NCBI GenBank assembly: GCA_965661285.1
Contig: CBFIDD010000002.1
Coordinates: forward strand, 64,001-128,000
Reading direction: 5' to 3'
DNA from: Poseidonia sp.
GTDB taxonomy: Archaea > Thermoplasmatota > Poseidoniia > Poseidoniales > Poseidoniaceae
DNA length: 64,000 nucleotides
Below the pieces are notes generated by a model that was not told where the DNA came from, searched no databases, and was given only the letters and a program-made list of their open reading frames with translations. The translations under genes and the position numbers were made by a program. This document shows, piece by piece, positions 17,137 through 41,177 of this stretch. Every line of letters begins with the position of its first letter. The first letter of the stretch is position 1.

Positions 17137-17804
17137 ATGCGGTCGTCGGGCAAATCTTCGAGCGTTTGGTGTTCGGGTGTTTTGCCCGGGCCGATGAACC
17201 AACGAGCATTCAGCGGTTCTTCAAGCACCAGCATCAAGTTGTTGTTTTTCAGTTGTTGAATCGCGGCCGCGGTGCGCTGCATGACAGGGGCGATGTCTTC
17301 TCTGAACACGTCGTTCATCACCTTGCAGAGTTCACCAAATGTTCGACTCCCGTCTGCCAACTCCCAAAGCAGGCTGTTCATGTCATCAAGCGGTCGCTTG
17401 AGTTCGGTTGGTGCTCTGAGAAAGGCGGCGATTTTCCCTTCGATTCGACCAAATTGCTTCGGTATTCTCAACACCACACGACGACCACTGACACCACGAA
17501 GGCCCGGGTCTTTGCGGACTTCGCCCGTTCGTGCCCACCACACTGGCGTGCGGCACGGATACTGGTCAACAAGGGGATGATGGTCAATACCAGCGATTTC
17601 CTCCACAACGATTCCTCCTAGAATTCCATCCATGTCCACACAAGCAAGGTGAGCATCGACGCCGTTCCGACCAACGCCATCGTCCGTGTCGCTTGTACGC
17701 GCTCGGTAAAATTCCGAAGGTACCACGTTCCAACGCCGCATGCCGCAACCATAAACCAAAGCGCATACCATGCCGAGGGATAGGTCTCCACGCCTCTTGG
17801 TCAT
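17100..17804 (-). CDS. Protein with a C-terminal PqqD-like (RiPP recognition element) domain
   Basis: LDDMNSLLWELADGSRTFGELCKVMNDVF..AAIQQLKNNNLM; start uncertain (ATG 17804 overlaps the upstream stop; ATG 17741 is an alternative). Confidence 0.6.
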   Translation of the reverse strand: MTKRRGDLSLGMVCALVYGCGMRRWNVVPSEFYRARTSDTDDGVGRNGVDAHLACVDMDGILGGIVVEEIAGIDHHPLVDQYPCRTPVWWARTGEVRKDPGLRGVSGRRVVLRIPKQFGRIEGKIAAFLRAPTELKRPLDDMNSLLWELADGSRTFGELCKVMNDVFREDIAPVMQRTAAAIQQLKNNNLMLVLEEPLNARWFIGPGKTPEHQTLEDLPDDRIYDWSMLEGEAP

Positions 17805-20800
17805 CAAAGGGTTCCATCAAGGTATTGCTGACCGTAGTATTCCCACTGCTCTTGCGTCCAACCGGGCGGAAGTCCACCTTCAGGAAGGGGCGGGCCCCGA
17901 TTGGATGGCGGCGCATTCGATGCTGGTGATCCTGGATTAACCGATGATGCTGGTTCGACCTCGGGAACGACCTTTTCATGTCCTTCATCGCTGATGGGGG
18001 GTCCAGCATGGATCATCTCGGTGGCGTCAATCTCATCTGGTCCCGCAGGACGTCTTCTCATGAACACCACGAGGGCTGCGACCAGGACCAATCCACCAAA
18101 TCCGGTTCCGAGGAGGGCTTTCGTGGACATCGTTGAATCCGACGGCGGTGAGGCAAACGTGAGGTTGAGCGTCTCTGTTGTTTGAAGGAAGCCGTCGGTT
18201 GTTTTCGTTGCAATACGCAACTCACCTTCAAGCGGACCCGACATTCGGAGGACCTCGCAGCGAAGTTGAATGGATTGTGGCGTGATGTGGCCAGGTGAGA
18301 GCAGGCTTTCTACTCCTGATTCGTTGACCAATCGTTTGTTGCATGTGATCTGCCATCCTTCCGCACCCGTCAGGGTCGTCACAAGGGGTTCATTTGTGGT
18401 TGACGTCGATGTAAGGTTAATGGCGACCGGTGCAGAAGTTCCGTGAGGAATTGGGGCCTTCTGCATCACTCCTGTTTCCATTTCCACATTGCGCTGCTGA
18501 TTGAGCATGACGAGTGCTTCTGTGTTGAGCGTTCTTGGCAATCCTTCATCGTCCACGGCACCCATAACATCGAAACGAAGTACAAAACGTGTATTGAGCG
18601 GCGCCTCCTCTGGCACGAGAACATCCAGACGAAGCGTGAGTTCCCCACCCGCTGGGACCATAACGGGGACTTCACTTCCAGCGGTCCTGTCACCTCCATC
18701 CACGGTGAAGAATACCAAGAGACCAGGGACCGGTGGCGATGAGGAAACGGAGGCCTCGACGGCCAACCGGTTTTCGACAGCATTGCCCGTATTGATGAGG
18801 CGAGCCTCTGCAAACATGCTGCCCCCCGCCATGGTGGCCTCGGACTGACTGGAGAGTTCAATGGATGATATCCGAATTGAATCCGTGGCCATGACGAGTT
18901 CAATGGAATTATCCTCCGGCTTGAGGTCGTCTCCGCCCCCCTGATGCGCGGCCGTGATGTGGACGGTGTGCAGCTCACCGGCCGCTTCAGTCATCGGGAG
19001 CAACACCCACATGCTGATGTCTTCTTGATGCTCAAGATCGTACGAAACACTGAGGCTTATGGGTCCGGTGATGTTGCCTTCGTCCGAAGAAAGCCACCAA
19101 TCCCATGTTTCTGGGAAGTCCATGGGAGCCATGTCAACATCGGTGGGTCCATTGCCGTTATTGGTGATGCGCAATACGATCTCATTGGGGATACCGGGCG
19201 TCAATTTTGTCGGCGATGAGACGGCCTCAAGTTGAACATCGTGCGTGGTACTGACGCGCAATCCGTTGTAGGGTTCGCCTTGAATTTCCATGAGGCTGCG
19301 TTTTGATTCAATGACCGGTGTAATCGTTGGCCCTCTATCGTTGGCTTGTGCGTTGGCGGGCACATCCACCACGATTTCAAAGGTGGAACTGGTGCCTGCA
19401 TTCAAAACAGCATCCGGCCTTGTGGGTTGATGAACCGTCCATGTCCCTTCATTTTCAACATCAGCCCGCATCGAAAAGATGTCCTGACGCGTGGCGTTGT
19501 TCCATATTGTATACTTCAGGACAACTTGTGACCCCGCCTCTACATATTGATTCTGTGCGGCATCATGATTGGACAGGGCAACGTTCGCATTGCTGACCAT
19601 GGATGCGGAAACAGCCAATGTTTTCCGGTCAATTCTGTCTGAATCGTTTTGTGCTTGAAGAGTGAGGTCGAACTCTACCACAGCGTCTGGGGCTTCGTTG
19701 TTGGGCACGGTCATGGTGAACAGAGCCTGTACGGTTTCATTTGGACGAATCAACACGGAGGACGGTTGTGTCCATGCAAGACCTATTGTCCAGTCGCTGG
19801 GAACGGTTGACATGTCCATCTCGATGTCAAAGACATCGGTCGCTCCGCCTTGATTGGACAAACCAACCTCGAAAGTGCAGGTGTAGGACGGGGGGCAACT
19901 TGGGCGAACCGGTGCGGGAAGAATAACCGGTATACGGTCAGCTTTGACGAGGAATTGAACCGGAAGTACGGTGAAAATATCGGGGTATTGACTTGAAGTG
20001 ATGTTCACACTCATTTGTTGAAACCCAATCGAGGCATTTTGGTCGGGTTGGATGTTGATGGTGAATCCTGCAGGACTGCCAGGAAGCGCCACCAAGCCGG
20101 AGAGCGGGTCAAAACTCGTTCCGGACGGTCTTGAATAATACGCATTCCATGAAGCAGGCAGCCCTTCCAGTGTTGGAATGAATGTCTCGGAGATGTTCCC
20201 GGTGTTGATGATCTCTAGAGACACGCTGCCCCACGCTCCTGGTGTTGCCCCGTTGGTTGAGATGCCTTGAGCGGACACATTGTATTCCTCAGGTCGGACC
20301 TTTTGGTCGTAGACGATAACGATATCATCAATGTAGAATCCAATGTCGGTTCCCGAAGCGTCGGATGTGAATTCAAACTTGAACTGAGAGGTGCTGTGGA
20401 ACAAATCATCCGCGACTGGGATAAGCGGTGAATTGTGACCTTTGTTTGAAACACTGAATGTCTGCCAGTTCGCGCCGTCGGTGAAGACGTTGTCGATGGT
20501 TCCTGATATGGAACCAACTTCACTCCAAGCACCAAAGGCATTCCTGCCGTAAATGGTGAGTTTGTCGTTGGCAGCGGTGCTCCCTGTGTAAAAGAACGAC
20601 AGGCCACTCGTGCGACTGGGGTTCTTTACCGCATCTGAGAGATCCATGACCGGCGTGGTCAAAATGGACAGGGCATTGTTGTTGTAGTTGGAGGACTGTC
20701 CGTTCCCGGCGTGGCAGCTGCGACCTTGTGAAATTGATGTATCTGTGGAAACCTGCCACCCACTACCGAAACTCCAGACGTTTGACGCATCGCAGTTGAA

Positions 20801-21340
20801 GTATTCGTAACCAACCGTAAACGGTTGATTGCGCCGGTCGTTGCTGGGATTATCATCGGCAACCGTCGATGTGGCCTCAATTCGAAGCGTGTGGTTTCCT
20901 GCATAACTCGGTACGAGATTGACGTTGACGGTGTTTGAGGCTCCGCCGGCCAGCGAAGCCATCTGCACGGTTGAATTGCTGAACTCGAAATAGGTGTATT
21001 CGTCGTGAAGAAGGAGGACATTGACGTCAATAACGCCGGAGGGATTCGTACCGAGGTTCTCAACCGTGATGGTCAACGTGGCCGATATGTTCACCATCGC
21101 ATCGATGACAAAGAGTTCTGCAGGTCGATTAAATCCAAAGATTGGATGGTTTGATGAGAACATTTTGAAGGTGTTTTCATCGGCACTGTTGGTGTATTTG
21201 ACGCCCGTATCTACAACGCTCACGTCAACCCCGGTTGTCGGGCTGTGGCGCACAGTTGTCTCCTCAAGGGTTGTCGGCACGAGTGGCACAAGGGTTCCCA
21301 AAAGGAACAACACAACAAGGCCGGTTGCAGCGTACCTCAT
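17804..21340 (-). CDS. Large cell-surface protein with CARDB/NEW3-type Ig-like repeats, a C-terminal TM and a Pro/Trp-rich cytoplasmic tail
   Basis: Signal peptide; repeated N.G...D/E motifs (VENLGT, INTGNISE, SNQGGATD, TNNGNGPT); TM near the C-terminus; ends PPLPEGGLPPGWTQEQWEYYGQQYL. Confidence 0.8.
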   Translation of the reverse strand: MRYAATGLVVLFLLGTLVPLVPTTLEETTVRHSPTTGVDVSVVDTGVKYTNSADENTFKMFSSNHPIFGFNRPAELFVIDAMVNISATLTITVENLGTNPSGVIDVNVLLLHDEYTYFEFSNSTVQMASLAGGASNTVNVNLVPSYAGNHTLRIEATSTVADDNPSNDRRNQPFTVGYEYFNCDASNVWSFGSGWQVSTDTSISQGRSCHAGNGQSSNYNNNALSILTTPVMDLSDAVKNPSRTSGLSFFYTGSTAANDKLTIYGRNAFGAWSEVGSISGTIDNVFTDGANWQTFSVSNKGHNSPLIPVADDLFHSTSQFKFEFTSDASGTDIGFYIDDIVIVYDQKVRPEEYNVSAQGISTNGATPGAWGSVSLEIINTGNISETFIPTLEGLPASWNAYYSRPSGTSFDPLSGLVALPGSPAGFTINIQPDQNASIGFQQMSVNITSSQYPDIFTVLPVQFLVKADRIPVILPAPVRPSCPPSYTCTFEVGLSNQGGATDVFDIEMDMSTVPSDWTIGLAWTQPSSVLIRPNETVQALFTMTVPNNEAPDAVVEFDLTLQAQNDSDRIDRKTLAVSASMVSNANVALSNHDAAQNQYVEAGSQVVLKYTIWNNATRQDIFSMRADVENEGTWTVHQPTRPDAVLNAGTSSTFEIVVDVPANAQANDRGPTITPVIESKRSLMEIQGEPYNGLRVSTTHDVQLEAVSSPTKLTPGIPNEIVLRITNNGNGPTDVDMAPMDFPETWDWWLSSDEGNITGPISLSVSYDLEHQEDISMWVLLPMTEAAGELHTVHITAAHQGGGDDLKPEDNSIELVMATDSIRISSIELSSQSEATMAGGSMFAEARLINTGNAVENRLAVEASVSSSPPVPGLLVFFTVDGGDRTAGSEVPVMVPAGGELTLRLDVLVPEEAPLNTRFVLRFDVMGAVDDEGLPRTLNTEALVMLNQQRNVEMETGVMQKAPIPHGTSAPVAINLTSTSTTNEPLVTTLTGAEGWQITCNKRLVNESGVESLLSPGHITPQSIQLRCEVLRMSGPLEGELRIATKTTDGFLQTTETLNLTFASPPSDSTMSTKALLGTGFGGLVLVAALVVFMRRRPAGPDEIDATEMIHAGPPISDEGHEKVVPEVEPASSVNPGSPASNAPPSNRGPPLPEGGLPPGWTQEQWEYYGQQYLDGTL

Positions 21341-21369
21341 ATCCCTCAAACGAGGCAAGATTCGGCTAT

Positions 21370-24979: not shown

Positions 24980-25429
24980 TCAAGGTCGCCATGTGGCGAC
25001 AGATTTCGGTGTTTCTCGACAGTGCATGGCCACAAGGCGAAGACGGTTGCCATAGGTTGAGGAGATGTGCGGCGCCACTGCATCAAACGCCCATTTCGCA
25101 AGATTTTCTGCCGTCGGGATGAAGGTTACAATCACGGTTCTGTGCCCTTCGCCCATGCACATGCACGCTTTTTTCCCTTCTTCGTCGCCTTCGTAGATGA
25201 CGAACGCATGGTCAATGACATCGTGAACATGTTCCATCAACACCTTGCTGATATCAGAGAAATCCATCAACATCCCTTCGTCAGAAACACCAGAGACCTC
25301 AACCACGTCGCCTTCGATTTCTGCTTCAAACCTGTAACGATGTCCGTGAAGGTGCCTGCATTTTGACTTATGATTTGGCACCCTGTGGCCCGTGTCGGTC
25401 TCTACATAGCGTCGTATTGTGGTCGTCAA
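24980..25429 (-). CDS. queD: 6-carboxy-5,6,7,8-tetrahydropterin synthase
   Basis: GHRV..KCRHLHGHRY, GMLMDF, DHAF, PTAENLA, ETP. Confidence 0.93.
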   Translation of the reverse strand: MTTTIRRYVETDTGHRVPNHKSKCRHLHGHRYRFEAEIEGDVVEVSGVSDEGMLMDFSDISKVLMEHVHDVIDHAFVIYEGDEEGKKACMCMGEGHRTVIVTFIPTAENLAKWAFDAVAPHISSTYGNRLRLVAMHCRETPKSVATWRP

Positions 25430-26586
25430 TGTTCTTCCTCCTCGTCCAATTCAAACGAAAGTGAAGCGGAGTTGATGCAATAGCGCTCTCCGCCATAAGC
25501 TGCAGGGCCATCGTTGAACACGTGTCCAAGATGGGCATCACAAACACTGCACCTAACCTCAACACGAACCATCCCGTGCGTATAGTCGTCAATTCTGACA
25601 ATATTGGCTTCCCTATGTTCAGTATGGAACGATGGCCAACCGCACCCGGAATCAAATTTCATGGTCGAGGTGAACAAAAGCGTTGAACAGCATATACATC
25701 GATAATCTCCCGCTCGTTTCTCATTCCAATATTCGCCCGTAAATGCACGCTCTGTTCCCGATTGTCTCGTGACATGGTACTGAAGGTCAGTAAGGCGCTC
25801 TTTGTAATCCTCCTCTCGATGACGTCGTTGCGTTTCCAGGGCATCCTCAAGCACCTCGCGCCAGGGTTTGATGTAGTCAATGGGGTCCTGTCTTCCGATG
25901 GCGTGAAAGGCCAATATTCGTTCAACATCCGAGCCTGTACCACCGTGGGAACGCCCATCTGCATCTGGTGCATAGGAGGTAAGCGTCCTCGAAAAGACCT
26001 CATCGAAATCAAGACCTAGGGCGGCGATCGATGTTTCAGCATCTCGCAGAATACCGATTTTATCGCTCTCCAGATAGGGCAGGGTGAACGAAACGCGCTC
26101 ACTCTCCCAATTGCCGATGGCAAAAGCATGCTCCAGGGCCGTGTAAAATTCAGGGCGACAGTCGGGATAGATGGCGTGGTCGCCGCTGTGAACGCCGAGA
26201 ACAATTTCCGCCGTTGTATCGTGTTTGGTGGCCTGTGAGAGTGCAACGCCGTACAAAAGGGAGGAGAACAGGGCATTCCGGTTTGGCACAATGGTTGCTT
26301 TCATGTTCTCCTCTTCATAGTGTCCTTCTGGGACATCTTCGCCACCCTCAAGAAGATGGCTCTCAAACAGAGCAGTGGCCGACGAGAGGTCGGCAACGTG
26401 ATGATTGACATTAAACCCGTTTTCGGCCAAATAGGCCACCAGTGATGTTGCTCTTTCCAGTTCAATCGCGTGTTTTTGCCCGTAATTGAAGGAAATGGCG
26501 GTCACGGTGTAGTTTTCCCGTAGTAAGTGAAGAAGCAAGGAGGAAGAATCCATTCCCCCACTTAAGGCCATGACTGCGAGTTTCAT
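25426..26586 (-). CDS. queC: 7-cyano-7-deazaguanine synthase QueC fused to methionine-R-sulfoxide reductase MsrB
   Basis: N-terminal SGGMDS, FNYGQKH, VPNRN, HSGDHAIYPDCRPEF; C-terminal GTERAF, RCICC, KFDSGCGWPSF, RCSVCDAHLGHVFNDGP, RYCINSASL; one uninterrupted ORF. Confidence 0.93.
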   Translation of the reverse strand: MKLAVMALSGGMDSSSLLLHLLRENYTVTAISFNYGQKHAIELERATSLVAYLAENGFNVNHHVADLSSATALFESHLLEGGEDVPEGHYEEENMKATIVPNRNALFSSLLYGVALSQATKHDTTAEIVLGVHSGDHAIYPDCRPEFYTALEHAFAIGNWESERVSFTLPYLESDKIGILRDAETSIAALGLDFDEVFSRTLTSYAPDADGRSHGGTGSDVERILAFHAIGRQDPIDYIKPWREVLEDALETQRRHREEDYKERLTDLQYHVTRQSGTERAFTGEYWNEKRAGDYRCICCSTLLFTSTMKFDSGCGWPSFHTEHREANIVRIDDYTHGMVRVEVRCSVCDAHLGHVFNDGPAAYGGERYCINSASLSFELDEEEEH

Positions 26587-26598
26587 TGTATCATCTCC

Positions 26599-27258
26599 TT
26601 ACAGTATGCCCATCCATTTGTGGGTTTGTAATGACAATCGCCACGCCGGATTGTCCTTTACGACGGCCTCGGTAAGAGCAAAACCCCGCCCGTTTTCCTC
26701 TACTGTGGCTCCTTCATCGTAGCAGGGTTGAAGGAAAAGATGTGAAAAACCGTCCTTAAGGTCATCATACATTGAGAGCGATTGTCCAACATAAACGCAT
26801 TTGAGTTCGTCTCCCACACGTTGTTTAATTGAGACATTGGGGTACATCTGGTCTTTCGGTGAAATGCAAATCCAATCCAATAACCCATCGGGGATGGCTA
26901 CAGTACCGTTTGATTCCACTGAGAGATGGTAATTTTGCAGTTTCAGCATTCGAGCCAACGGCCAGAGGTCGTTGAGCATGGGCTCACCTCCCGTGAAAAT
27001 GATGTTTTTGCACGGGTACTCGTTCACCTTCTCCATGATCTGTTGAGCCGTCATGGCTTCGTATTCATCGAAATTGGTATCGCACCACTCGCAGCGTAGA
27101 TTGCATTTGCCAAACCGAATGAACACATGGGGTATGCCGCTTCGGAACCCTTCGCCTTGAACGGAATGAAAAATCTCGACGATATTGTAAACATAGGAAG
27201 GGTCGCTCTCCCGCACCTCAAGGCGGGGCCGCAGCACAACTTCACTCCTCTCCGGCAC
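26599..27258 (-). CDS. queE: 7-carboxy-7-deazaguanine synthase (radical SAM)
   Basis: EIFHSVQGEG, CNLRCEWCDT, TGGEP, ISPK, LQP, RLSLQTHK. Confidence 0.95.
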   Translation of the reverse strand: MPERSEVVLRPRLEVRESDPSYVYNIVEIFHSVQGEGFRSGIPHVFIRFGKCNLRCEWCDTNFDEYEAMTAQQIMEKVNEYPCKNIIFTGGEPMLNDLWPLARMLKLQNYHLSVESNGTVAIPDGLLDWICISPKDQMYPNVSIKQRVGDELKCVYVGQSLSMYDDLKDGFSHLFLQPCYDEGATVEENGRGFALTEAVVKDNPAWRLSLQTHKWMGIL

Positions 27259-27267
27259 GTTCTCACC

Positions 27268-27843
27268 TCAAAGGGGCGGTTGGTGAATCAATTGCATGAG
27301 CTCTTGTCGAGCTTCGGGGCGTTCAAAGAAGACACCGCGCATCGCAGATGTGGTCATAACAGCCTGTTGCTTTGCCACGCCGCGACATTGCATGCATCCG
27401 TGCGAAGCCTCGAGGATGACGGCTGCACCAAGGGGTTCCAGTTCGCGTTCGAGGTCGTCAGCGATGCCCTTCGTGATTCGTTCCTGATTTTGCAGTCGCC
27501 TGGCGTGCAATTCGAGGATTCGGGCCAATTTGCTAATGCCAACGATCCGCTCAACAGGTATGTAGGCAACGTGAGCGCGCCCTCGGAACGGCTGGAGATG
27601 GTGTTCGCAGGTTGAAGTGAATTCGATGTTGCGAAGCAAGACGATGCCATCATACCCCTCGCCGTTGAAGGTGGCTTGCAGAAGTTCACTGGCGTCCATG
27701 TCGTAGCCAGCGAATATCTCGCTCCACGACTCCACCACTCGCTTAGGGGTGTTTTTCAACCCTTCACGCTCGACATTGTCCGTGCCTTCGATGTAGCCCA
27801 ACAGCACGCGTACTGCCTCATGCGCTTCGTCTTCTGTTACCAT
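27268..27843 (-). CDS. folE: GTP cyclohydrolase I
   Basis: REGLKNTPKRV, STCEHHLQPF, GISKLAR, LQNQER, HGCMQCRG; start ATG 27843. Confidence 0.95.
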   Translation of the reverse strand: MVTEDEAHEAVRVLLGYIEGTDNVEREGLKNTPKRVVESWSEIFAGYDMDASELLQATFNGEGYDGIVLLRNIEFTSTCEHHLQPFRGRAHVAYIPVERIVGISKLARILELHARRLQNQERITKGIADDLERELEPLGAAVILEASHGCMQCRGVAKQQAVMTTSAMRGVFFERPEARQELMQLIHQPPL

Positions 27844-27844
27844 C

Positions 27845-28012
27845 TCAAATCCTCCTCCCGTGCATCTTGTCAATGGTGTCCAACTGGTCCAACAACTTTC
27901 GACACGCCGTTCGAATGGCATCTGCAAGACTGACAAACTTGTGGTCATCACCGACATGCAGTTTGAGGTCGTCGACCAATTCTTGTGGCATATCAAGTGA
28001 AACCTTGGGCAT
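27845..28012 (-). CDS. Ribbon-helix-helix (CopG/Arc/MetJ-fold) transcriptional regulator, 55 aa, absent from the ORF track
   Basis: Manual translation MPKVSLDMPQELVDDLKLHVGDDHKFVSLADAIRTACRKLLDQLDTIDKMHGRRI*; KVSLDMP beta-strand and S..DAIR helix; one nt separates its stop from the folE ATG. Confidence 0.85.
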   Translation of the reverse strand: MPKVSLDMPQELVDDLKLHVGDDHKFVSLADAIRTACRKLLDQLDTIDKMHGRRI

Positions 28013-28035
28013 GATGAGCGCTCACTGAGCATTGG

Positions 28036-39235: not shown

Positions 39236-41062
39236 TCACTCAACGAACATGTCCTCTTGATATCCGGTGACCAAGTCGCCAGTGCCGTCTTCCTCGATGG
39301 TCACCGTGCCTTCGTCATCATCAAATTCAACAATCGTCCCAAAGACTTCCTCGTCATCAAACACAATGCCAATGTGCGAACCGATGTCGATTTCGTCATC
39401 ATCGTCTTGTTCGTCTTCCTCGTCTTCGTCCCCGTAGTCCTCTTCGCTGTCTTCGTCATCGTACATGTCATCGTCATCAGCAGCCTCTTCCGTTGATCCG
39501 TCCTCATCGTCGTCAACGGATTCCTCATCATCTTCGGCATCATCCTTGGTGTGAGCAGAGCCCGCTGCTTCAGATTTGTCTTCTTCAAATTCTTTCATGG
39601 CCTTAGCCCTTGCCCTCCACCCCGGTGCTTTCACCAAGTGCAGGAACAAGGTCGTCCCTAAACCTATGACGGATATGAGAATGAAGAGGATGCCATCCCA
39701 GTAGAATCCAGTTGGCATGGACAAAGAACCATTGTCGCCCGAAAGTGGTGTCAGTGAGTTCTGGCAACCATCTTTCTGGAACTTTTCATCACAAGGATAG
39801 ATGTCACCTTCTGCGATGTTGCCGCTGGGAATGAGGCCGGAATCGTTTGGTTCATAGGCAATGTTTCCGCCAGAACCGTCCACAAACCCGAACATTCCGT
39901 TGGCGATGAAAATGACCATGAGGATGCCGAAGCCAACATGAAGAATTGGCCAAACTGAATCGTTCCATGTCTTCGACATCATTCGCTTTTGCCAAGGGGA
40001 CGGGAAGACCTTTTCCTCAACCAATTCCTCGATGGTTTCGTAATCCTCCATGGATGCGATGAATTCGGTGACATCAATCATGTCATCGCCATCGACGTCA
40101 ATGCTTCGCATGATCGCATCAACCTCGTCTCCATCAAGCGTTTCTCCGTATTTCTCTGCGAGCTCATTTCGTAGTTCTGCCAAGGAAATCATGCCGTTTC
40201 CATCAGCATCAAGTTCGTTGAAAAGCCGCTGAGCTGATATGTCGTGGTCGTCCATGAGGTTCGCAAGGGCCGAAAGTGGGTGGTACGCGTTTGGAGCATC
40301 AACTTCATTGGAGGTTTCTTCTGTCGATTCTTCATCCGCGAGGTCGATTTCCTCATCTTCATCAATTTCAAACGTTTCGCCCTCAATGTCATGTTCATCT
40401 TCGTCGGATACATCGTCAACATGCTCGTGAACTTCTGCATCCTCGTGAACGTCAGCATCGCTCAGGTCTCCCAAAACCACGCTTTCAGACGCTGCTTCTT
40501 CCTCATCAGGGGCGTCCACGGATTCTTCTTCTGCTTCTGGTTCTTCGGTATCCACCGATGCCGTTTCATCGCCCTCGTTCTCTGAATCATCGGCTGCAGG
40601 AGGTACATCATCACCCATCAAAATCTGGTCAAATTCGTCAAGGTCGATCAAGCCGTTTCCGTCAGCGTCAATCTCGGAGACCAGACGGTCGACTTGTGAT
40701 GGCGGCAAATCGGCAAGATTGAGGCTAAGAAGGCCGGCTCGCAATTCATCAGAATCAATGGTGCCGTCACTGTTATCGTCAAATTTATCGAACAGTTTCC
40801 GGATGTTTATGCCCGTTTCAGCAACCCATTTACGGAGGATATCAACAACATCGTCTGCGACGAAGAGAACGCCACACTCGGGGCATTGCGTCGAGTCCAA
40901 CGGAACCAATGAATTGCATGCGCCACACTCTCCGAGAGCTTCATCTGAAAGGCCTGAAAAATTGGTGCCACATTCTGGACATTCGGTTGAATCGATTGGG
41001 ATGACCGCTCGACATGCACCACATTCAGCCATGGAGGCTGCATCGTTTTCTTCGTCCGCCAT
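39236..41062 (-). CDS. Membrane protein with a double zinc ribbon, four EF-hands, two TM helices and an SH3/KOW-like C-terminus
   Basis: CGAC..CPEC and CGAC..CPEC; EF loops DDNSDGTIDSDE, DADGNGLIDLDE, DADGNGMISLAE, DVDGDDMIDVTE; two hydrophobic helices; alternative ATG at 41074. Confidence 0.85.
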   Translation of the reverse strand: MADEENDAASMAECGACRAVIPIDSTECPECGTNFSGLSDEALGECGACNSLVPLDSTQCPECGVLFVADDVVDILRKWVAETGINIRKLFDKFDDNSDGTIDSDELRAGLLSLNLADLPPSQVDRLVSEIDADGNGLIDLDEFDQILMGDDVPPAADDSENEGDETASVDTEEPEAEEESVDAPDEEEAASESVVLGDLSDADVHEDAEVHEHVDDVSDEDEHDIEGETFEIDEDEEIDLADEESTEETSNEVDAPNAYHPLSALANLMDDHDISAQRLFNELDADGNGMISLAELRNELAEKYGETLDGDEVDAIMRSIDVDGDDMIDVTEFIASMEDYETIEELVEEKVFPSPWQKRMMSKTWNDSVWPILHVGFGILMVIFIANGMFGFVDGSGGNIAYEPNDSGLIPSGNIAEGDIYPCDEKFQKDGCQNSLTPLSGDNGSLSMPTGFYWDGILFILISVIGLGTTLFLHLVKAPGWRARAKAMKEFEEDKSEAAGSAHTKDDAEDDEESVDDDEDGSTEEAADDDDMYDDEDSEEDYGDEDEEDEQDDDDEIDIGSHIGIVFDDEEVFGTIVEFDDDEGTVTIEEDGTGDLVTGYQEDMFVE

Positions 41063-41177
41063 CTTTCCACCCATTCTCACCACGGGAAGTGGCAATATAA
41101 TAATTGATGGAGATTATCAAGGCCGAGCAGTAATTCCTTAGGACCCCTCATCCTCGTCAAGAACCGGGAGGCGTTGA

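Follow-up and report, generated by a model that had tools for sequence, protein, structure and literature searches.

An in-frame QueC–MsrB fusion with a cysteine-free former zinc loop in the preQ0 operon of Poseidoniales

Within a 64,000-nt stretch of Poseidonia sp. DNA (assembly GCA_965661285.1, contig CBFIDD010000002.1, positions 64,001–128,000), referred to here as the window, we analyzed a gene of the operon for the synthesis of 7-cyano-7-deazaguanine (preQ0) in which the coding sequences of QueC and of the methionine-R-sulfoxide reductase MsrB are joined in one frame. The product is probably a bifunctional protein that arose by the merging of two operon neighbors and whose domains act independently of each other, the loss of the QueC zinc site being a prior and separate event. 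The fusion itself is already known; the lineage of zinc-free QueC proteins that carries it, for which the literature searched gave no description, is the more useful lead.

Results

The fused gene and the continuity of its reading frame

The fused queC-msrB gene (25426..26586, minus strand) is an open reading frame (ORF) with an ATG start, which encodes a protein of 386 amino acids. Pfam placed QueC at residues 4–227 (E = 2.7e-38; PF06508, score 132, cut-off 22) and SelR at residues 265–379 (E = 5.7e-49; PF01641, score 165.3, cut-off 24.9). Among the NCBIfam models, the MsrB model TIGR00357 was passed with a score of 170.6 (cut-off 113.05), and the QueC equivalog TIGR00364 scored 131 with a cut-off of 150.3. 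ORF, Pfam, and NCBIfam thus agree with the initial annotation, which had been made from the letters of the window and their translated frames, that QueC and a complete MsrB are joined in frame in one 386-residue product. The protein contains eight cysteines, at positions 143, 297, 299, 300, 315, 346, 349, and 370.

The junction (25795..25863, minus strand) corresponds to residues 242–264, for which the secondary structure of an AlphaFold2 (AF2) model predicts a single helix leading from the C-terminus of QueC into the linker. The stop codon of split relatives falls in the same region. That the single ORF is an artefact of assembly or sequencing which joins two genes has a practically negligible probability, since independent contigs of four runs from four studies cross the junction without any indel or stop codon. 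Three of these four contigs reach across all of 25300–26700. Within the ORF there were 13 substitutions, nine synonymous and none creating a stop. Both Pfam domains were present in all 120 of the listed 90%-identity clusters, and many genomes of the order Poseidoniales have the fused form, which also speaks against an artefact. Absence of a stop or frameshift across 25790–25850 and occurrence of the fusion in more than one assembly, both left to be checked by the initial annotation, were thereby borne out, the former in assembled contigs and the latter by a match to both domains in one frame in 102 of the 201 Poseidoniales genomes.

An archaea-specific AANH-MSRB fusion (AANH, adenine nucleotide alpha hydrolase) was catalogued in a 2018 review with UniProt A0A2D6JNB0 as an example (Maupin-Furlow, 2018, Antioxidants 7:124, PMC6211008), and the legend of Figure 4B in this review names Cys162, CysR334, and CysA389. 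In gene calls of the fused family with a length of 404 or 405 amino acids, cysteines were located at exactly 162, 334, and 389 in 11 of 11 proteins checked; C143, C315, and C370 of the window protein are these positions minus 19. This agreement in numbering indicates that the fusion had already been catalogued, as far as the available text of the review goes, and had not been recognized as QueC. The initial supposition that it was undescribed is therefore contradicted.

The QueC domain and its former zinc site

The QueC domain comprises residues 1–252 (25831..26586, minus strand), as judged from PF06508, the motifs in the translation, and the fold match to 3BL5. It was compared in two alignments, A1 (the window protein with 22 relatives) and A2 (49 fused proteins). 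In a 2026 study of the PF06508 family (PMC13329287), as far as its accessible text goes, canonical QueC ("Cluster 1") is described by the motifs SGGxDS, YxQxHxxE, VPxRN, YPDC, and C(x)8CxxCxxC; the last of these, the zinc motif, counts as characteristic of the family, and a tyrosine of the zinc region, Y189 of Escherichia coli, as essential.

Four of these five signature motifs are kept in the window protein, together with the tyrosine beside the first ligand position. The pyrophosphate loop (PP-loop) reads SGGMDS (residues 9–14) and is invariant in both alignments. The substrate/ATP motifs YGQKHAIE (35–42), VPNRN (100–104), and YPDC (140–143) are all present, and Y35, Q37, H39, E42, R103, N104, Y140, D142, and C143 do not vary across the 49 fused proteins. 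The tyrosine adjoining the first ligand position, Y205, does not vary in A1 or A2 and, by its place in the motif, would be the counterpart of E. coli Y189.

The zinc motif C(x)8CxxCxxC was not found, and residues 144–296 contain no cysteine. The former zinc loop (residues 203–223, TSYAPDADGRSHGGTGSDVER; 25918..25980, minus strand) has the same length as in the cysteine-bearing relatives of A1. At the columns where those proteins read T-C-Y ... C-G-x-C-G-x-C-x-E-R, the window protein reads T-S-Y ... H-G-G-T-G-S-D-V-E-R, so that the four ligand positions are now occupied by S204, H214, T217, and D220. S204 and D220 are invariant across A2. The initial description of a QueC that has lost all four zinc cysteines was thus confirmed column by column. 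In the AF2 model, which was built with the 49 fused sequences (mean predicted local distance difference test score, pLDDT, 87.1; predicted template modelling score, pTM, 0.78), the pLDDT of this loop was 80–86.

The genomic setting is that of preQ0 synthesis. The order of genes around the fused gene is folE-queE-queC/msrB-queD, all on the minus strand, and the initial annotation of a preQ0 operon is upheld by the Pfam and NCBIfam assignments of the QueD, QueE, and FolE neighbors on this strand. In the source genome (1.98 Mb, 93% complete), the fused gene holds the sole QueC match and the sole SelR match, and its product is the only QueC-family match above the Pfam cut-off with full-length coverage. 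The genome also encodes consumers of preQ0, an archaeosine tRNA-guanine transglycosylase (ArcTGT; TGT and PUA domains, 742 amino acids) and a DUF5591/ArcS-like gene. As both are present, the destination of preQ0 that is usual in archaea, archaeosine in tRNA, is available; the pathway is taken here as summarized in the accessible text of PMC13329287.

These data bear on whether the N-terminal domain is instead another adenylating enzyme, ThiI-like (AANH) or protein-conjugating in the manner of Cap9/QatC. Such an assignment was made in part by the 2018 review, the available text of which reads the domain as ThiI-like (IPR020536) with an unknown substrate X (PMC6211008). It would fit the TIGR00364 score below the cut-off, the missing hallmark zinc motif, and the fold resemblance to Cap9. 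A Foldseek search with the N-terminal domain returned Cap9 9NTO with a template modelling score (TM) of 0.75, alongside QueC 3BL5 (TM 0.77) and 2PG3 (TM 0.71; values on targets). We regard it as very improbable that the domain is not a preQ0 synthase, because it keeps YxQxHxxE, VPxRN, and YPDC, which according to the accessible text of PMC13329287 are missing from the QatC cluster, because it is the only QueC-family protein of a genome with folE, queD, queE, ArcTGT, and an ArcS-like gene, and because the operon is conserved in all 52 loci compared below.

The MsrB domain

The MsrB domain occupies residues 265–379 (25450..25794, minus strand; Pfam and TIGR00357). Both zinc-binding CxxC pairs (C297/C300 and C346/C349), the resolving C315 (GCGWPSF), and the catalytic C370 (RYCINS) are present, as initially described, and these six cysteines are invariant across the 49 fused proteins. 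The domain superimposes on the solved MsrB structures 6Q9V, 3CEZ, and 6SYM with a root-mean-square deviation of 1.0–1.1 Å (Foldseek, E = 2e-17, TM 0.81–0.91 on targets). Apart from a 32-residue fragment that is cut off by a contig end (G000:C2:450422-450517, L039), the genome gave no match to MsrA (PMSR); MsrA is probably present in the genome yet not assembled.

The zinc-free QueC lineage extends beyond the fusion

We compared 51 loci, picked to cover genera and states, together with the window (52 loci in total, so that the counts of states are not prevalences). The cysteine-free loop was found in all 52 of these Poseidoniales loci: 26 with a fused gene, 19 with split genes, and 7 with no msrB. 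The loss of the zinc cysteines is thus independent of the fusion. A scan with one genome per species added 80 related loci, and all 80 were free of cysteine at the ligand positions. Thirty-three of these loci are titled as bacterial (Pirellulaceae, Mariniblastus, Planctomycetaceae, Verrucomicrobiota/Pedosphaera, Neomarinimicrobiota, Alphaproteobacteria, Entotheonella, and others). Among the 31 bacterial-titled loci that lack the archaeal operon, none has msrB within 3 kb of queC. The other two, L137 (Salinimicrobium) and L168 (Rhodobiaceae), contain a complete folE-queE-queC-msrB-queD operon of the Poseidoniales type and are probably mis-binned or mislabelled contigs. Elsewhere in the lineage the ligand positions are mostly Ser/Ser/Ser/Asp, and several planctomycete loops have exactly the S/H/T/D of the window protein. 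The best match in a cultured phage was the QueC of a Flavobacterium phage (48% identity), the loop of which is longer and also cysteine-free.

The presence of a zinc-free QueC and a zinc-bearing MsrB in one chain could suggest that MsrB replaces the lost zinc site, either by providing structural zinc or by propping up the loop that lacks cysteines, and a role of MsrB as supplier of structural zinc had been among the initial proposals. The distribution contradicts it: the 52 loci of the order and the 80 related loci are cysteine-free whether or not msrB is there, the same type of QueC occurs in bacteria that have no adjacent msrB and in the Flavobacterium phage, and the loss belongs to a single lineage whose range far exceeds that of the fusion. 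Because zinc-free QueC exists apart from MsrB in genomes of the order, in bacteria, and in phage, MsrB is not a compensation and QueC does not depend on it; we consider zinc replacement highly improbable.

The window QueC shares 54–62% identity with planctomycete QueCs. Within the order, identity is 55–71%; one genome of the same class reaches 59%, and the other matches listed from the phylum show 28–41%. This closeness to planctomycete proteins over those of its own phylum points to an inter-domain transfer of queC. With the loop columns excluded, a QueC tree placed 48 cysteine-free rows and two four-cysteine rows in one group (95% support in the Shimodaira–Hasegawa-like approximate likelihood-ratio test, SH-aLRT); the 17 other four-cysteine rows lay outside it, and three changes of state suffice. 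The cysteine-free QueCs thus appear to be essentially one lineage that spans the domains, with the fusion a later and local event inside it; judging from these sequences, the zinc loss would be older and wider than the fusion and unrelated to it.

Several close relatives show other insertions. In P0123 (658 amino acids), P0126 (734 amino acids), and P0149 (651 amino acids), QueC is interrupted by an intein (Intein_splicing/Hint) after about residue 140, between the two halves of the domain, with LAGLIDADG in one of them. P0136 (456 amino acids) has an HNH endonuclease domain ahead of a four-cysteine QueC, which branches basally to the zinc-free lineage.

Fused, split, and msrB-less states within Poseidoniales

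The fused protein was matched in 180 of the 201 genomes of the order, and 102 of these gave one single-frame match over both domains. Junction stops occur in four of the 102 rows (G018, G072, G062, and G100), three of which were checked. A single stop in 15 further rows (14 of genus g2 and G110) was the gene's own end in two of two checked. An in-frame TGA of genus g2 was considered as a junction stop or as a selenocysteine codon and was rejected, as the TGA is the gene's own stop in the two cases checked. Among 1.84 billion 50%-identity representatives, P0121 was the only second fused cluster, which indicates that the fusion is confined to the Poseidoniales lineage.

The order folE-queE-queC is found in 52 of 52 loci. 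queD is next in 48 of them, and the other four have no queD match in the stretch examined. In 45 of the 52 loci, msrB comes after queC and ahead of queD, fused in 26 and as a separate adjacent gene in 19. The fused loci are of two kinds, 18 with a long junction (378–386 amino acids) and 8 with a short one (360–366 amino acids), the latter being about 20 residues shorter at the joint. In 3 of the 19 loci with separate genes, one in-frame stop stands 12–33 nt ahead of the MsrB match, and these in-frame split forms differ from the long-junction fusion by one substitution, which suggests that the gain or loss of one stop codon brought about the fission or the fusion. In the remaining 7 of 52 loci msrB is absent, and queC is followed directly by queD; in 5 of 5 genomes with no operon msrB (87–98% complete), there was no SelR match anywhere. 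Fused and split states differ even inside the genera g3, g7, g14, and g23.

Number and direction of fusion events

An operon backbone tree (FolE, QueE, QueC residues 1–250, and QueD combined) called for at least seven changes between the fused and the not-fused state, and a single clade for each junction type was rejected (approximately unbiased, AU, test, p = 5e-4 and 7e-6). Partial trees gave five changes for QueC alone, six for FolE and QueE, and six for QueD. In the tree of the MsrB domain, all 8 short forms made one group (98%), all 18 long forms another (85%), and two changes are enough. The MsrB tree (loci L007–L059) is sorted by junction type; the backbone tree rejects those groups and intermingles members of both main families. 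This suggests an exchange of the operon or of msrB alleles among Poseidoniales, or convergent fused MsrB domains. As the trees are unrooted, they do not tell fusion from fission.

Other genes of the window

The queD gene (6-carboxytetrahydropterin synthase; 24980..25429, minus strand; Pfam PTPS, TIGR03367) and the terminal part of the fused gene have 4 nt in common. On the other side of the fused gene lie queE, for the radical-SAM 7-carboxy-7-deazaguanine (CDG) synthase (26599..27258, minus strand; Pfam Radical_SAM, best NCBIfam matches to QueE models), and folE, for GTP cyclohydrolase I (27268..28032, minus strand; Pfam GTP_cyclohydroI, E = 1.6e-63). The FolE ORF has about 70 residues before the domain, which begins at residue 72, and the true start is probably internal. 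The remaining genes of the window are ordinary archaeal housekeeping genes and genes of histidine utilization. A 619-residue protein (39236–41095, minus strand) has several EF-hand pairs together with a weak match to a double zinc ribbon that stays under the cut-off, a combination that is unusual in archaea. A predicted surface protein of 1184 residues (17804–21358, minus strand) matches CARDB and NPCBM_assoc weakly and has, at its C-terminus, a stretch resembling a membrane anchor.

Discussion

A probable merger of two operon neighbors

According to the explanation that we favor, the N-terminal domain would be the preQ0 synthase of the cell, converting CDG, ATP, and NH3 to preQ0. Its lineage would have exchanged the four-cysteine zinc site for Ser/His/Thr/Asp in a loop that presumably folds metal-free. 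The C-terminal domain would be an ordinary zinc-containing two-cysteine MsrB that reduces methionine-R-sulfoxide in proteins, and the two domains would work independently. The fusion would arise where it does because msrB directly follows queC in folE-queE-queC-msrB-queD; the frames may merge through a change of the stop codon (long junction) or through a short deletion across it (short junction). In this explanation, the direction was presumably fusion rather than fission.

Several points weigh against this explanation. The pTM of 0.78 is fairly high for two domains and would be compatible with a fixed arrangement. The backbone tree (at least seven events) and the MsrB tree (two) conflict on the number of fusions, from which either a movement of fused alleles between lineages or a convergence of fused MsrB domains would follow. 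Both main families of the order keep msrB within the preQ0 operon, and this placement of the genome's only MsrB could reflect a functional tie and not chance. Fused genes are common (102 of 201 genomes, four of these rows with a junction stop). The TIGR00364 score lies under the curated cut-off. The activity of a zinc-free QueC is deduced from the conservation of the operon, and in QatC the zinc cysteines are essential, mutation of the four abolishing function according to the accessible text of PMC13639016.

A functional tie would mean that MsrB repairs oxidized methionines of QueC, QueE, or other proteins of the pathway in a sunlit, oxidizing habitat, or, in another form, that it couples the synthesis of archaeosine to the redox state; in either form we judge it unlikely. 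It would agree with the position of msrB, after queC and ahead of queD in 45 of 52 loci of both main families, with its being the only MsrB of the source genome, with the fused form in about half of 201 genomes, with M12 of the PP-loop and M95 not varying among the 49 fused proteins, and with the pTM of the AF2 model. A complex prediction of QueC (residues 1–252) with MsrB (258–386) from alignment A2 gave a score of 0.00, the mark being 0.32. The tie is difficult to reconcile with the 7 of 52 loci where queC is followed by queD, the 5 of 5 such genomes that have no MsrB at all, the flips of state within g3, g7, g14, and g23, and the same type of QueC in bacteria with no adjoining msrB (0 of 31). 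The support for the coupling of preQ0 synthesis to oxidative repair, which the initial annotation had put forward, is the gene order, and we have not retained it in favor of a merger of independently acting neighbors.

Implications

Many proteins of the fused clusters are named "MsrB" by NCBI (metagenome-assembled genomes of Poseidonia/Poseidoniales) and "QueC" by JGI; both names are partial and are corrected here. The substrate of the N-terminal domain, left open in the available text of the 2018 review (PMC6211008), would be CDG by the operon context. A large natural lineage that keeps the other signature motifs and the pathway context and has none of the ligands offers a ready test of the role of zinc in QueC. 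Fused, split, and absent msrB within one order likewise form a natural series on the effect of fusing operon neighbors. A bolder reading, to which we give little credence at present, is that of a competent zinc-free QueC lineage in Poseidoniales, Planctomycetota, Verrucomicrobiota, Neomarinimicrobiota, and phages that moved between domains, possibly as a zinc economy in zinc-poor surface water, with the repeated merging of queC and msrB perhaps reflecting a dependence on methionine repair.

Comparison with known systems

The AANH-MSRB protein, as it appears in the available text of the 2018 review, has the same arrangement as the window protein, an N-terminal PP-loop adenylation domain and then MsrB; QueC, the preQ0 operon, and the lost zinc site are not mentioned there (PMC6211008). 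The main text of the 2026 PF06508 study, as far as it is accessible, contains neither MsrB nor SelR and no zinc-free canonical QueC (PMC13329287), and in the text open to our literature searches we found no description of the fusion as QueC-MsrB or of a zinc-free QueC.

Canonical QueC (3BL5 of Bacillus subtilis, 2PG3 of Pectobacterium) shares with the window protein the PP-loop, YxQxHxxE, VPxRN, YPDC, the tyrosine by the first ligand, the fold, and the queD/queE/folE operon setting. The window protein differs from it by S...H..T..D in place of the zinc motif, by a longer C-terminal helix, and by its position below the NCBIfam equivalog cut-off. Stand-alone zinc-type MsrBs (E. coli 6SYM, human MSRB3 6Q9V, Burkholderia 3CEZ) are 53–56% identical to the window MsrB, share with it both CxxC pairs and the catalytic and resolving cysteines, and superimpose on it with the above deviation of 1.0–1.1 Å over about 122 columns. 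The window MsrB differs in that QueC precedes it in the same chain. Of the MsrB query segment, the first 10–12 residues or so were unmatched in the short-junction forms.

In MsrA-MsrB (3E0M, 7E43, 5FA9) and in Trx-MsrAB, too, one polypeptide holds MsrB and a further enzyme, and there the partners share the repair pathway with MsrB. For QueC we know of no link to methionine repair. The Cap9/QatC protein modifiers belong to the same fold class as the window QueC domain (9NTO, TM 0.75). They keep a functionally required zinc site, which the window protein does not have; conversely, the canonical motifs that the window protein keeps are absent from the QatC cluster, as far as the accessible text of PMC13329287 goes.

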